DNA of 51,762 nucleotides from an uncultured Thiotrichales bacterium. Its GTDB lineage: Bacteria > Pseudomonadota > Gammaproteobacteria > UWMA-0217. Location of the stretch: the NCBI GenBank assembly GCA_964439815.1, contig CAYTPO010000010.1, forward strand, positions 1 to 51,762. Direction: 5' to 3'. The position numbers and the translations under genes were made by a program. The notes under the pieces are model-generated. The model was not told the origin of the DNA. It worked only from the letters and a program-made list of their open reading frames with translations, and ran no database searches. How positions within the stretch are numbered: position 1 is the first letter of the stretch; each line of letters opens with the position of its first letter. Positions 18,576-24,049 of this stretch are shown piece after piece.

Positions 18576-19070
18576 TTGACCATGAACACGAAAAACCGCG
18601 GACAATCGAGTAAATGGTTCTGGCCTGTTCTCTTTTTCATCCTGCTGATGGCAGCTGCGGTGCTGTCCTACCAATTCAGGGACTATTTCGAACCCAAGGT
18701 GATCGCTTCGCTGCAATATGATCCGACCTGCAATTTGCGACAGTCAGCTTGCAGGCTGACGCTGCCTGATGGTGGTGAGGTCGAGTTTTCCATAACCCCC
18801 GATACCATTCCGGTACTGCAACCCGTGCAGTTTCACGTTGCCGTCAGTGGCACCAATGTTTCTGCGGTGGAAGTCGATCTGGTCGGCACCAATATGAACA
18901 TGGGCTACAACCGGCCCGCACTGAAGTCCAAGGGTAACAACACCTTCAGTGGTGAAACTGTCATCCCTGTCTGTGTACGCAACCGGATGGACTGGGAAGC
19001 CAGGGTGCTGCTGCATACCCCACGGGGGATTGTCATGGCACCCTTTAGGTTCTATACGTTGAAAAAATGA
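18576..19070 (+). CDS. single-TM FixH/YtkA-like Ig-fold protein
   Basis: N-terminal anchor WFWPVLFFILLMAAAVL, then a beta-rich domain with CNLRQSAC and a third Cys. Starts 6 nt after nosY. Confidence 0.45.
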   Translation: MTMNTKNRGQSSKWFWPVLFFILLMAAAVLSYQFRDYFEPKVIASLQYDPTCNLRQSACRLTLPDGGEVEFSITPDTIPVLQPVQFHVAVSGTNVSAVEVDLVGTNMNMGYNRPALKSKGNNTFSGETVIPVCVRNRMDWEARVLLHTPRGIVMAPFRFYTLKK

Positions 19071-20323
19071 ATGTGCCACTTTCAATACCACTTGCCATGC
19101 TGGCTATGGTCTCTGCCCCCAGCCTTGCCAGCGACAACCCGGTAACAGTATCGGGGCGAATTCAGGCCGGCCTCATCGCCAATGACAATGACTCGAAAAA
19201 TGTCTTCCCAACCGGTTTTCTCAACTTCGATGAAGGCGCCAATCTGAACCGCGCCGAGGTCTTGATCGAGAAAAAGCCCGTAACCCCGATCAAGCCGCGG
19301 ATCGGCCCCTTCCCCGGTCCGAAACCGGCCTCCGCCAACTGGGGCTTTGAAGTGGATTTGCGCTATGGCCGCGATGCCGCCCTGACCTTTGGTCTGGACG
19401 ATGAGCTGGACATCAACGATGGCCACAAGAACCTGCTGCTGATACCGCAATGGTTCGCCACCGGCTACCTTCCCTGGGGCAATGGCGTTGCCTGGATCGC
19501 CGGCAGCTGGTTTACCTCGGTCGGTTATGAAATCGGCGCGCCGGTCGACCCGCCCAGCGGATTCTATTCGCACAGCTATGCCTTCACCTATGCACCCACC
19601 AAGCATGTTGGCCTGCTCACATCGGCCCGACTACCCCAGAAGAAAGGTGCCGGCATGGCAACGCTCTCTGTCGGTATCGTGCAAGGCTGGAACAATCTGC
19701 AGGACAACAATGATGACAAATCCATTATTTTCGACTGGCGCTGGCGCAGCCCCGACTTCAGAACCTGGATCGACTTCGAGAATATCATCGGCAACGAACA
19801 GACCGACAATACGCATAGCGAACAAACTCGCCCCTTCAATGCGATCAGCAGTCACAATGAAAAATTACTGCGCCGTTTTCACAGCCTGACGGTTACCCAC
19901 CGCTTCAGCCCGACAAACCGCATCGCCTTCAATATGGTTTATGGCTTTCAGGAAGGCGGCGACGTAATTGCTGCAAAAAGAAATCCACCCGGCTTTCTGA
20001 TCGTCAAGGATAGTGCTTGGTACGGTGCCAATTTCAATCTGTATCACCAGCTCGACAAGCACCTGCAAGCCGGTCTGCGGCTGGATTGGCTGACCGACGC
20101 GGAAGGCGCCCATGCCTTGCTTCCCGCCGGCGACTATTACGGAATTACCGCCAACCTCTCCTGGTGGCAGGGCAAACAGCTGCGCATCCGACCGGAATTG
20201 CGCTACGACTGGTATCAGGGTTCGGGAAAACCCTTTGGTGGCAAGGTGCCGGCAATCTTTTTCGGCGAAACCGATTCTCAATGGGTTGCCTCCATTGATG
20301 CAACCTGGTTCCTTTCACCATGA
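19067..20323 (+). CDS. outer-membrane beta-barrel (porin-like, OmpL/BBP2-like)
   Basis: Signal peptide MNVPLSIPLAMLAMVSAPSLA, alternating amphipathic strands rich in aromatic residues and Gly, and a C-terminal ...ASIDATWF. ATGA overlap with the previous gene. Confidence 0.6.
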   Translation: MNVPLSIPLAMLAMVSAPSLASDNPVTVSGRIQAGLIANDNDSKNVFPTGFLNFDEGANLNRAEVLIEKKPVTPIKPRIGPFPGPKPASANWGFEVDLRYGRDAALTFGLDDELDINDGHKNLLLIPQWFATGYLPWGNGVAWIAGSWFTSVGYEIGAPVDPPSGFYSHSYAFTYAPTKHVGLLTSARLPQKKGAGMATLSVGIVQGWNNLQDNNDDKSIIFDWRWRSPDFRTWIDFENIIGNEQTDNTHSEQTRPFNAISSHNEKLLRRFHSLTVTHRFSPTNRIAFNMVYGFQEGGDVIAAKRNPPGFLIVKDSAWYGANFNLYHQLDKHLQAGLRLDWLTDAEGAHALLPAGDYYGITANLSWWQGKQLRIRPELRYDWYQGSGKPFGGKVPAIFFGETDSQWVASIDATWFLSP

Positions 20324-21165
20324 CCGATAAGACCGCCTTTGTCAGGGCATTACGCCCATTTTCCCTGATCGTCGCCATTACCACCTGCGGGCTGGGTGTC
20401 AGCTTGGCATTGGTCGAAGGCTCCCGTCACTATTTTCTGGCGGGGCTGGTGGTATTCACCGGCATCCTGCTACAGATCGCTGTCAACCTGATCAACGATT
20501 ACCGGGATATCCACAGCCACCATTTTACTGCCACACAGAAACAGGCCATCAGAAGAAATACCCGTATCGGCTGGGCTGTCATGACCACTGCCATCTTGCT
20601 GGGATTCTACATGGTCAGTCTGCGCGGCTGGCCATTGCTGGTACTGGGCATCATCGGCGTATTCGGCGCCTGGGGATATACCGGCGGCCAGATCAATTAC
20701 AAGGAGCGCGGGCTGGGTATTCTGCTGGTCTTTTTCCTGATGGGCGTATTGCTCATTGGCGGCTCCTATTATGTGGTAACCGGTACCTGTCACTGGAACA
20801 TCTTCTGGCTTTCCCTGCCCTTCAGCCTACTCTCCTCACTGTTGCTGCTGAGCAATGAGCTACGCGACTACGAAGAAGACCTGGCGGCCGGAATCAAGAC
20901 GCTTAGCGTCAGATTGGGGTATCAGGTAGGCGTCAGACTGTATTACTGGCTGGTGGCCCTGCTCTATCTTGCCAGCGTCCTGCTGTATCAGGCCAATATC
21001 CTGCATGGTGTGGTTCTGTTGCTGGTGACGGCTCTGGCACTTTGGCAGCCGCTCAAGCTGCTGCACCTCCCACAGCCGCAACGCGTCCGCCTGACACCGC
21101 TGACGGGACGCTTCTACCTCATCTACAGTCTGGCCTATATCGCCACCATCTGGATGCCCCTATGA
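20320..21165 (+). CDS. menA: UbiA-superfamily prenyltransferase of the MenA type (1,4-dihydroxy-2-naphthoate polyprenyltransferase-like)
   Basis: Motif 1 NLINDYRD and motif 2 [22 protein letters not shown] resemble the E. coli MenA motifs as I recall them (NDYGD; NNLRD...GK.TL.VRLG). About 8 TM helices. Confidence 0.6.
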   Translation: [281 protein letters not shown]

Positions 21166-22756: not shown

Positions 22757-22777
22757 CCGGATCGCCGAGACGCCATC

Positions 22778-24049
22778 ATGAAATCGACCACCTTTTCAGG
22801 CTTCCGTTTTTTTTCCTGCTGGCAGATCCTCTGTATTTTCCTGCTACGCCTCCCCGCAGCTCATGCCTTTCCGCCCCTGCAACTCTACGTTGAACTGACA
22901 CCCACCGGTGGCACACTCAAGCCACCACCAGGCACCTACTCCGGACCGGTGGTAATCCAGAGAAAAATGGTGATCGACGGCCAGGGAGAGGTCACCATCG
23001 ATGGTCAGGGCGATAAGACAGTCGTTACCATTGCTGCGGACGGCGTCGAATTTCGTGGCATGCGCGTCATCAATTCCGGGGATTCCCATGATCGGGTCGA
23101 TGCCGCCATACTGGTCACTGCAAATCATACGATCGTGGAAAACAATACGATTGAAAACGCACTGTTCGGCATACACTTGCGCAAGGCCGACAACAACCTG
23201 ATAAAAGGCAACAAGGTTACCTCCAAGGATTACGATATCAGCATGCGCGGCGAAGGGCTGCGGGTCTGGTACAGCTATGACAATCTGATCACCGACAACC
23301 ACTTTGTTCAGGTACGTGATCTCGTGATCGCCAATTCCTCCGACAACCGCTTTGTCAACAACACCATCCGCTACAGCCGCATCGGCATGGAATTCATCTT
23401 TTCACCCGACAATGAGGTCTCCGGCAACACCATCGAGCACAACGATACCGGGATTATCGTGCTCTATTCCCACGATCTGCAGATCGACCACAACCGCATC
23501 CATCACATGCGCCTGCTTACCGGCTCCGGTCTCGCCTTCAAGGAGAGTTCCCAGGTGATCATCGAAGACAACGAAATTGCCCACTGTGCCGTCGGCTTGC
23601 GTGCCAATGCCCCGATACACCCGGAAAACATCCTCTACGCCCGACGCAATTCACTCCTGTTCAATGACATTGCCATGTACTTCTACGGCGAGAAAGGCGG
23701 CCATGTCATTCACGACAACAACTTCAACAACAACTTCGTCGATGTCCTGGGCAGCGCCTCGATGACCGTGCGTGACAACGACTGGCTTGGCAACTACTGG
23801 GACAAGTATGCGGGCTATGATCTTGACCACAACGGCATTGGCGACCAGCCCCATGAAGTCTATCTCTACTCCGACCGCATCTGGCGCGACCGCCCCATGA
23901 CCCGCTTCTTTCGTGGCTCCCCCGCACTATCCCTGGTGGATTTTGTCGAACGACTGGCGCCATTCTCACAGCCGGAACAGGTGCTCAGTGACCCCAAGCC
24001 AGTTATGCGCCCCCTTGCCGCCAAAGATGACTCTCCCTCCCAACAGTAG
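22778..24049 (+). CDS. second NosD-family beta-helix protein (divergent paralogue)
   Basis: Colinear with NosD (13124-14413) over the whole length: GEVTIDGQG, beta-helix rungs VENNTIENA, IKGNKVTSK, ITDNHFVQV, VNNTIRYS, IDHNRIHHM, IEDNEIAHC, and C-terminal GNYWDKYAGYDLDHNGIGDQPH and FVERLAPFS. Has a signal-like N-terminus. Confidence 0.75.
   Translation: MKSTTFSGFRFFSCWQILCIFLLRLPAAHAFPPLQLYVELTPTGGTLKPPPGTYSGPVVIQRKMVIDGQGEVTIDGQGDKTVVTIAADGVEFRGMRVINSGDSHDRVDAAILVTANHTIVENNTIENALFGIHLRKADNNLIKGNKVTSKDYDISMRGEGLRVWYSYDNLITDNHFVQVRDLVIANSSDNRFVNNTIRYSRIGMEFIFSPDNEVSGNTIEHNDTGIIVLYSHDLQIDHNRIHHMRLLTGSGLAFKESSQVIIEDNEIAHCAVGLRANAPIHPENILYARRNSLLFNDIAMYFYGEKGGHVIHDNNFNNNFVDVLGSASMTVRDNDWLGNYWDKYAGYDLDHNGIGDQPHEVYLYSDRIWRDRPMTRFFRGSPALSLVDFVERLAPFSQPEQVLSDPKPVMRPLAAKDDSPSQQ

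Follow-up and report, generated by a model that had tools for sequence, protein, structure and literature searches.

A candidate naphthoquinone uptake-and-finish module at the 3' end of a clade II nos operon in an uncultured Thiotrichales bacterium

The DNA analysed here, referred to as the window, is the whole 51,762-nt stretch of contig CAYTPO010000010.1 (genome assembly GCA_964439815.1) from an uncultured Thiotrichales bacterium, and it carries a nos gene cluster. Directly downstream of nosY, six further genes follow on the plus strand, three of which encode a MenA-like prenyltransferase, a BASS-type transporter and a UbiE/MenG-type methyltransferase. The MenA and UbiE/MenG families catalyse the last two steps of menaquinone synthesis, that is, the prenylation of 1,4-dihydroxy-2-naphthoate (DHNA) and the methylation of demethylmenaquinone, and to our knowledge the canonical clade II nos cluster contains no quinone-biosynthesis genes. 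We describe this gene row, its occurrence in other bacteria, and the evidence that four of its genes may form a route to a naphthoquinone.

The six-gene row and the nos accessory operon

The row downstream of nosY consists of the following features:

18576-19070, plus strand: gene for a 164-aa protein (open reading frame, ORF; translation starts more probably with ATG at 18582 than with TTG at 18576)
19067-20323, plus strand: BBP2 (OmpL-like) porin gene (PF07642)
20320-21165, plus strand: gene for a MenA-like UbiA-family prenyltransferase of 281 aa (PF01040)
21162-22034, plus strand: gene for a transporter of the BASS (SBF) Na+/carboxylate symporter type (PF01758)
22031-22756, plus strand: gene for a UbiE/MenG-type C-methyltransferase (TIGR01934, PF01209)
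22778-24049, plus strand: NosD2 gene (TIGR04247)
24087-24117, plus strand: intrinsic terminator after the NosD2 gene, with the 13-bp stem AAAAAGCCCUC...GAGGGCUUUUU

Counted from nosY on, the spacings are 6, -4, -4, -4, -4 and 21 nt, and stop and start codons overlap as ATGA at 19067, 20320, 21162 and 22031. The ORF coordinates, spacings and four overlaps given in the original prediction, which had been made from the letters of the window alone, were all reproduced exactly. A promoter and terminator scan gave no promoter-like plus-strand sites and no strong terminators between 18.5 and 24.05 kb. The hairpin that had been proposed to close the row (24090-24116) was recovered as the 13-bp stem at 24087-24117, where a 91-nt stretch folds with z = -2.7.

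The six genes had also been taken for the 3' half of the nos transcript, a view that stands in part. The terminator scan revealed a 13-bp hairpin followed by T8 directly 3' of nosZ (10221-10250), probably, to judge from its sequence, an attenuator or a terminator, and a strong hairpin with a T run at 11789-11809, after the gene for a 243-aa cytochrome c. Because of these two hairpins, the six genes are best described, as far as the sequence can tell, as the 3' end of an accessory operon, nosB-D-G-H-F-L-Y, and not as part of one nosZ transcript. An ORF of 104 aa (10208-10522) contains the hairpin next to nosZ and is likely no gene. The features upstream of the row are as follows; the domains of nosF and nosY come from a scan of the nosF-nosY stretch:

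7913-10204, plus strand: nosZ, Sec-dependent (clade II); the ORF opens with GTG at 7853, the likely start being ATG at 7913
10913-10926, plus strand: FNR/DNR-like box TTGACACGTATCAA, intergenic, upstream of the gene for the 243-aa cytochrome c; differs from the consensus at one position
11957-13117, plus strand: gene for a 386-aa protein in the nosB position, assigned by position and conservation only
13124-14413, plus strand: nosD (NosD1; TIGR04247, 396 against a cut-off of 300)
14406-16237, plus strand: nosG and nosH, NapG/NapH-type quinol dehydrogenase module (NCBIfam)
16242-17210, plus strand: nosF (ABC_tran domain)
about 17207-17734, plus strand: nosL (PF05573, 25 bits against a cut-off of 24; lipoprotein signal and CxxC motif)
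about 17740-18569, plus strand: nosY (ABC2_membrane domain)

The cluster has the composition of a clade II nos cluster, with a Sec-type NosZ, nosG, nosH, two cytochromes c, a nosB-like gene, and nosD, nosF, nosL and nosY. NosZ scored 871 with TIGR04246 (cut-off 625) and carries a Sec-type signal peptide starting with MQFKSKK. NosH passed the napH model TIGR02163 (236 against 213), and the best match of NosG was NapG, with 137 bits, under the cut-off of 269. The 386-aa protein in the nosB position matched no model in Pfam or NCBIfam; its homologues, 47-77% identical, occupy the same place in L010, L019, L086 and L096 (loci fetched from other genomes and metagenomes are denoted by L and a number). 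L010 lies on contig CAZTOZ010000016.1 of a closely related metagenome-assembled genome, and L019 on contig PNQY01000043.1 of Ca. Thioglobus perditus. nosL, which was absent from the earlier gene list, sits between nosF and nosY, and the true start of nosY is probably near 17740. Two FNR/DNR-like boxes were found in the window against a chance expectation of 2.1; the evidence for the box at 10913-10926 is weak, its intergenic position alone being suggestive.

The clade II nos cluster of Wolinella succinogenes has the order nosZ-B-D-G-C1-C2-H-F-Y-L. The window shares with it the Sec-type NosZ, NosG, NosH, two cytochromes c, a nosB-like gene, nosD, nosF, nosL and nosY, but the window and its relatives add either the MenA-like, BASS and UbiE genes or a full men pathway.

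Protein families encoded in the row

The 281-aa protein belongs to the UbiA family (PF01040, 99.5 bits against a cut-off of 34), and its top NCBIfam matches are all MenA models. It aligns end to end with Escherichia coli MenA (28% identity, E=2e-17) and has no significant match to E. coli UbiA. With a profile of 27 homologues, UBIAD1 was the sole match in the PDB (E=9e-17), and in a neighbour-joining tree the family came out as the sister of canonical MenA. Both MenA-type motifs that had been noted in this protein were found, as N56-x3-D60-x2-D63 and N179-E-L-R-D183-x3-D187, and are invariant or nearly so in the 27 homologues. We classify the protein as MenA-like, a member of a divergent sister family of MenA. 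The earlier call as MenA-like holds to the extent that alignment and tree place the protein closer to MenA than to UbiA, but it fails all curated MenA cut-offs. Two other identities were rejected: 4-hydroxybenzoate UbiA, since E. coli UbiA gave no significant match and no UbiA model was among the NCBIfam matches, and haem O synthase (CyoE), judged by models only, since no CyoE model was among them. A single-gene form of the family, 42-50% identical, was observed in Neptuniibacter, Oceanospirillum, Nitrincola, Pontibacterium and relatives (L052-L082), where the gene lies between those for a YegQ-like U32 peptidase and a class I fumarase (e.g. L056 10001-10837).

The methyltransferase passed the family model TIGR01934 (257.9 against 158.35), scored 243 bits with PF01209 and contains the motif DLAGGTGD, which bears out the UbiE/MenG-like assignment made earlier. 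Its scores lie below all equivalog cut-offs (e.g. NF001242, 264 against 351), and its identity to E. coli UbiE is 44%. In a neighbour-joining tree of 100 sequences, the homologues at least 53% identical to it form one clade, which has MenA-type, BASS, men and nos genes as neighbours and never a ubiB gene following; for most homologues of at most 50% identity, ubiB comes next (33 of 60 housekeeping loci). Because of the separate clade and these neighbours, we concluded that the methyltransferase is a MenA-associated paralogue and not the housekeeping ubiE. The latter identity, which the original prediction had named as a point to check, was rejected on the separate clade, the constant lack of a following ubiB and the 44% identity to the E. 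coli enzyme.

Set beside the E. coli enzymes, the two window proteins belong to the same families and have the same catalytic motifs, and the methyltransferase passes the common family model. They differ in that the prenyltransferase is so distant from MenA and below all MenA cut-offs, in that the methyltransferase belongs to a clade outside the ubiE-ubiJ-ubiB context, and in that their genes, unlike the classical menaquinone genes, lie inside a nos operon together with those for a porin and a transporter.

The porin matched PF07642 (BBP2) with 165 bits. The BASS protein scored 120 bits with PF01758 (cut-off 24) and 176 with TIGR00841 (cut-off 326).

NosD2 passed TIGR04247 (333.5 against 300). 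It is a full-length paralogue of NosD1, about 39% identical and with the motif ERLAPFS common to both, and it aligns with Pseudomonas stutzeri NosD (7o0y) over residues 17-241 and 335-411, the C-terminal segment included; it is without a NosFY partner of its own. Orthologues 50-71% identical follow the module in L010, L090 and Thiodiazotropha, and NosD2 accompanies the porin-containing form of the module. The earlier family calls for porin, prenyltransferase, UbiE and NosD2 were confirmed by hidden Markov models (HMMs), and that for the BASS transporter at the level of the SBF domain, but that of the first gene in the row, called FixH-like, was not.

The 164-aa protein encoded by this first gene matched neither FixH nor any other Pfam or NCBIfam model even at E<=10, and the FixH identity was rejected. 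A single-sequence AlphaFold2 model of low confidence (pLDDT 68) consists of an N-terminal helix followed by nine strands. Of its features, only this general topology of a transmembrane helix and a probably periplasmic beta-sandwich fits FixH. A fold search with the model returned generic Ig/FN3-like sandwiches, and the closest match among small proteins was the Helicobacter pylori copper protein CrdA (TM score 0.65 on the target, E=1.6e-3). Homologues occur after nosY in Sedimenticola (L050) and beside UbiA in L078. The protein is more likely a nos or copper accessory protein than the product of a quinone gene.

Linkage to nos clusters and the men pathway in relatives

We examined 79 genome loci collected with the UbiA profile, 80 metagenome loci collected with UbiE and several loci found by exact protein look-up; genes in the fetched loci were called from tblastn-based maps or by simple ORF logic. 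The constant core of the module is a UbiA-BASS pair, in which the BASS gene adjoins the UbiA gene (62 loci), with an outer-membrane channel often upstream and UbiE or NosD2 often downstream. A BBP2 porin gene stands directly upstream of the pair in L010, L090 and about 20 Thiodiazotropha-type loci. In Halobeggiatoa (L012 9061-9999) another outer-membrane beta-barrel, of 312 aa, was seen in the place of BBP2, and in Thiodiazotropha taylori (L001 11903-12511) a DUF938-type S-adenosylmethionine-dependent methyltransferase gene follows BASS, where others have UbiE or NosD2. The carriers are mainly marine sulfur-oxidising Gammaproteobacteria, namely Thiotrichales metagenome-assembled genomes (MAGs), Marithrix, Thioploca, Halobeggiatoa, Thiomargarita, Thioglobus, Sedimenticola and Thiodiazotropha, and also Chromatocurvus (C. 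halotolerans DSM 23344, UbiA-BASS in L044).

With loci shorter than 10 kb set aside, 12 of the 28 loci of the MenA-associated UbiE clade had nos genes, versus none of the 31 housekeeping loci (Fisher p=3e-5, relatedness ignored). The gene-neighbourhood check proposed with the original prediction had a positive outcome: at least eight distinct gene orders, from several families, link MenA-type and UbiE genes with clade II nos, including:

Window, L010 and L090: identical gene order, NosD2 included
Thioglobus/Piscirickettsiaceae (L019-L021, L037): nosY, c49, ZnuA-Sco, UbiA, BASS, UbiE
Sedimenticola: divergent arrangement
One Thiotrichaceae MAG: nosY, BASS, UbiA
Cocleimonas: UbiE beside nosZ
L086, L088 and L094: rubrerythrin-like gene, UbiA1, UbiE, UbiA2 and dihaem cytochrome c gene, divergent from nosZ
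L096 and L105: nosY, then canonical MenA, with UbiE convergent

This recurrence bears on the simplest alternative, namely that the module landed 3' of nosY in this lineage by chance and is read through without any functional tie to nos. The module is indeed mobile, being found, for example, beside tuf and ribosomal protein genes in L087 and beside ftsK or uvrA in Beggiatoaceae. A mere chance neighbourhood is nevertheless very improbable in our judgement, given the number of arrangements and families, the contrast with the housekeeping ubiE loci, and the presence of NosD2 orthologues with the module also at loci that have no nos cluster next to it.

Two further observations concern the forms of the module. 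Metagenome Ga0256914 holds a locus 100% identical to the window over UbiE and NosD2 (L089) and a second version of porin-UbiA-BASS-UbiE-NosD2 that is 79-84% identical (L090); two related module-bearing populations therefore coexist in that sample. Thiodiazotropha has porin, UbiA, BASS and NosD2 genes inside a nir/haem d1 cluster, next to a NirT-type quinol dehydrogenase fusion.

Homologues of menF, menD, menC, menE and menB were not found in the window by tblastn, and Pfam scans of 30 other ORFs gave no recognisable member of a quinone head-group family, the mqn genes not having been searched with queries of their own. The original prediction that the window lacks both menFDHCEB and mqn genes is thereby borne out for these five men genes. 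Relatives have such genes at the corresponding place, at these positions:

L169 1-12227; L170 1-12298; L099 8275-20707: head-group genes 3' of nosY and of a cytochrome c gene; all share one strand, and stop codons overlap the next start

The nos operon of L099 is followed by a cytochrome c gene and then menC, a thioesterase gene, menD, menB and menF; this men row is convergent with MenA, a multihaem cytochrome, a UbiE of the same clade as that of the window, and MenE. The products MenA (278 against 264), MenB, MenC, MenD and MenF pass curated cut-offs, and MenE and the thioesterase lie below theirs. L169 and L170 represent two more lineages, one of them an abundant 'Thiotrichales bacterium', in which nosB-D-G-H-F-L-Y, a cytochrome c gene, menC, the thioesterase gene, menD, menB and menF follow one another on one strand as overlapping genes. 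Such men rows in the nos operon mean that relatives hold a complete DHNA pathway where the window has porin, MenA-like, BASS and UbiE genes. UbiE proteins of the same clade (56-75% identity) partner canonical MenA in L098, L099 and L100, including the full men pathway. The men genes of L169 were also seen beside narGHJI and dsrC.

The BASS gene and the men head-group genes occur in a complementary pattern. BASS is present in 64 loci, none of which has men head-group genes, and men genes are present in four loci, none of which has BASS. Moreover, the MenA gene of L100, whose product clears its cut-off (276 against 264), comes after a same-clade UbiE gene and overlaps one for BASS. Together with the men pathway in the same slot, these findings lend indirect support to the import of a head group that had been proposed earlier.

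A pair of genes flanks both versions of the locus, namely the UbiA-BASS-UbiE loci and the canonical MenA loci L098 and L099. One, c49, encodes a small secreted protein of about 115 aa, and the other, ZnuA-Sco, a fusion of a ZnuA-like metal-binding domain with a Sco1/SenC-like domain; the two may act in copper delivery. The pair was recorded in Thioglobus, Piscirickettsiaceae, Sedimenticola and L098/L099, at the following positions:

L019 8235-10011; L099 6375-8176; L050 2809-4508: c49/ZnuA-Sco pair

A secreted protein of about 280 aa with three CxxCH motifs and cytochrome c' repeats is encoded between MenA and UbiE in L099 (9147-9989) and L098 (9204-9950), and a homologue of it lies beside NosD2 in the Thiodiazotropha nir cluster (L030 13987-14832).

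A search with the MenB of L099 gave, among the best 120 matches (at least 75% identity), the names Thiotrichales, Thiolapillus, Endothiovibrio and Thiohalocapsa. Thiodiazotropha, Thioglobus and Beggiatoaceae are not named among these 120, a weak negative as few entries are named.

A possible route to a naphthoquinone for anaerobic respiration

The row, which closes the nos accessory operon, is best explained by a reading in which four of its genes would constitute an uptake-and-finish route to a naphthoquinone, an explanation that we hold to have about an even chance of being right. It is proposed because of the linkage of the UbiE clade to nos, the men pathway in the same slot in relatives, and the lack of any locus with both BASS and men genes; the complementary pattern of BASS and men genes is the main support for assigning BASS and porin to the supply of the head group. 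The route would probably amount to DHNA salvage for a naphthoquinone used in anaerobic respiration.

Gene content, packing, families and synteny are observed, whereas what the route would take up and in which direction, what it would yield and which enzymes would draw on the product are inferred, as follows. A free naphthoate, most likely DHNA, would cross the outer membrane through the BBP2 porin and be moved across the inner membrane by the BASS symporter. The MenA-like enzyme would prenylate and decarboxylate it to demethylmenaquinone, which the dedicated UbiE/MenG paralogue would methylate to menaquinone. The quinol would be oxidised by anaerobic quinol dehydrogenases, with electrons passing from NosGH, the NapG/NapH-like quinol dehydrogenase module of clade II nos clusters, through cytochromes c to NosZ; in relatives, NirT-type enzymes and possibly DsrMKJOP might also use it. 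NosD2 and the 164-aa protein would more likely serve maturation in the periplasm or copper handling, their genes accompanying the module.

The original prediction went further and proposed a quinone pool dedicated to NosGH. This is too narrow: the Thiodiazotropha module lies in a nir cluster, only about one third of the modules are near denitrification genes, and the window itself carries, on the minus strand, a reverse-type dsr cluster with dsrAB, dsrL, dsrMKJOP and dsrN. A pool for NosGH alone is an over-reach because DsrMKJOP, which is quinone-dependent, is encoded in the same window; DsrM and DsrP are further quinone-interacting proteins there. The presence of the cluster also identifies the source organism as a sulfur oxidiser. 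Its genes are:

37233-49678, minus strand: reverse-type dsr cluster
48299-49678, minus strand: dsrA
47143-48228, minus strand: dsrB
44799-45539, minus strand: dsrM, NarI-like
43249-44766, minus strand: dsrK
41242-43191, minus strand: dsrL
40053-40796, minus strand: dsrO
38763-39986, minus strand: dsrP, NrfD-type
37233-38627, minus strand: dsrN, CobB-like

As for the other genes seen in the regions flanking the nos cluster (2821-5673, 24309-25082 and 31823-33232), those for an ArsP-type permease, a DsbD_2 protein and a sigma-54 activator lie upstream of nosZ, a gene for a rhodanese-domain protein is convergent with NosD2, and the sirohaem synthase gene cysG lies farther downstream.

The dsr genes also fit a general supply of menaquinone under anoxia. 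On that explanation the two enzymes carry out the ordinary last two steps with a head group supplied by men or mqn genes outside the window, the product serves SQR, DsrMKJOP, Nir and Nos alike, the adjacency to nos reflects co-regulation by anoxia, and BASS and porin are unrelated or auxiliary. The location of most UbiA-BASS modules away from denitrification genes, the full men pathways of related sulfur oxidisers, the dsrMKJOP and dsrAB genes of the window, and the place of the Thiodiazotropha module in a nir cluster and not beside nos agree with it. It does not account for the nearly invariant UbiA-BASS pairing across 62 loci, the separation of BASS from men head-group genes in all loci sampled, the independent pairing of a canonical MenA with BASS in L100, and a 52-kb window devoid of men genes when relatives keep theirs beside nos. 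We regard a general supply of this kind as possible but rather doubtful.

A third explanation concerns the product. The imported compound might be another aromatic carboxylate, which after prenylation and methylation by UbiE would yield a lipid quinone other than menaquinone, or a prenyl-phenol, that serves denitrification or the cell envelope. The prenyltransferase scores under all MenA cut-offs agree with such a product, as does the sister family's inclusion of stand-alone genes in aerobic Oceanospirillales, organisms reported to contain only ubiquinone-8 (Q-8). So does the variant in L086, L088 and L094, where a same-clade UbiE goes with two very divergent MenA-like proteins and a rubrerythrin-like di-iron protein. 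The partnership of the same UbiE clade with canonical MenA or a full men pathway in L098, L099 and L100, the single PDB match to UBIAD1 and the conserved MenA-type motifs speak against it, and we consider a different product unlikely. The nos-linked variant just mentioned (L086 8491-12500, L088 8420-12369, L094 6036-9239) has a UbiE 75% identical to that of the window and two MenA-like proteins, UbiA1 and UbiA2, 22-26% identical to the prenyltransferase of the window; no BASS and no men genes are present at these loci.

Several points weigh against the uptake-and-finish route. The prenyltransferase scores under every curated MenA cut-off, with 138.5 against 264 for NF004751 and 83.3 against 102.15 for TIGR00751, and another aromatic acceptor is therefore possible; moreover, the neighbour-joining trees carry no support values. 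Oceanospirillales hold the prenyltransferase gene alone, without BASS or UbiE. Only 19 of the 62 UbiA-BASS loci are near nos, nir or NosD2, the neighbours of the module in Beggiatoaceae are housekeeping genes, and the loci compared are not phylogenetically independent. MenB is present in other gammaproteobacterial sulfur oxidisers, namely Thiolapillus, Endothiovibrio and Thiohalocapsa. The data cover 52 kb, so men or mqn genes may lie elsewhere in the genome; the function of BASS may be unrelated, and we know of no BASS transporter that carries DHNA. Finally, NosD2 is without a role in the scheme.

Salvage of DHNA has parallels. Streptococcus agalactiae has menA only and salvages DHNA. Exogenous DHNA is used by some bacteria that are unable to make their own quinones, e.g. 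Lactiplantibacillus plantarum (PMC10746273). The window resembles these Gram-positive systems in its partial pathway, with the prenyltransferase kept and no head-group genes nearby. It differs in that the host is a Gram-negative sulfur oxidiser whose salvage is deduced from genes, and in that the operon encodes a candidate uptake system, the porin and the BASS transporter, tied to denitrification genes. A respiratory gene cluster that carries the genes for a needed cofactor is also known from the haem d1 genes nirDLGHJ of nir clusters, directly beside which the Thiodiazotropha module lies; the product of the window genes would, by contrast, be a diffusible membrane quinone and not a bound prosthetic group.

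None of the components is new, neither the enzymes and DHNA salvage as a concept nor clade II nos clusters and NosGH; what we could not find described is a link between N2O respiration and quinone supply. Our literature searches found no nos cluster with men, menA, ubiE or prenyltransferase genes, in agreement with the original prediction, and neither a coupled MenA and BASS gene pair nor such a sister family of MenA, although earlier descriptions may exist. The MenA-sister prenyltransferase family and the MenA-associated UbiE clade are newly delineated here, and BASS and porin are the first candidate genes for DHNA uptake.

Organisms with clade II NosZ are regarded as important sinks of N2O, and the route of electrons via NosGH is poorly defined. 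If nos clusters bring their own supply of naphthoquinone, this would be a pointer to the quinone specificity of NosGH in Proteobacteria and would account for the functioning of nos clusters transferred to hosts that are ubiquinone-based. If the salvage variant is true, abundant marine sulfur oxidisers and symbionts would depend for their reduction of N2O on a vitamin-K precursor from outside. As a tentative extension, N2O respiration and denitrification in the marine sulfur-oxidiser guild, that is, Thiotrichales, relatives of Thioglobus/SUP05, Sedimenticola and the lucinid symbionts, might depend on naphthoquinone, and the lineages in which the module replaces the men genes might be unable to make the head group and scavenge DHNA from neighbours or hosts, so that this N2O sink would be limited by cross-feeding. 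Such a dependence may explain why quinone genes occur in clade II nos clusters.

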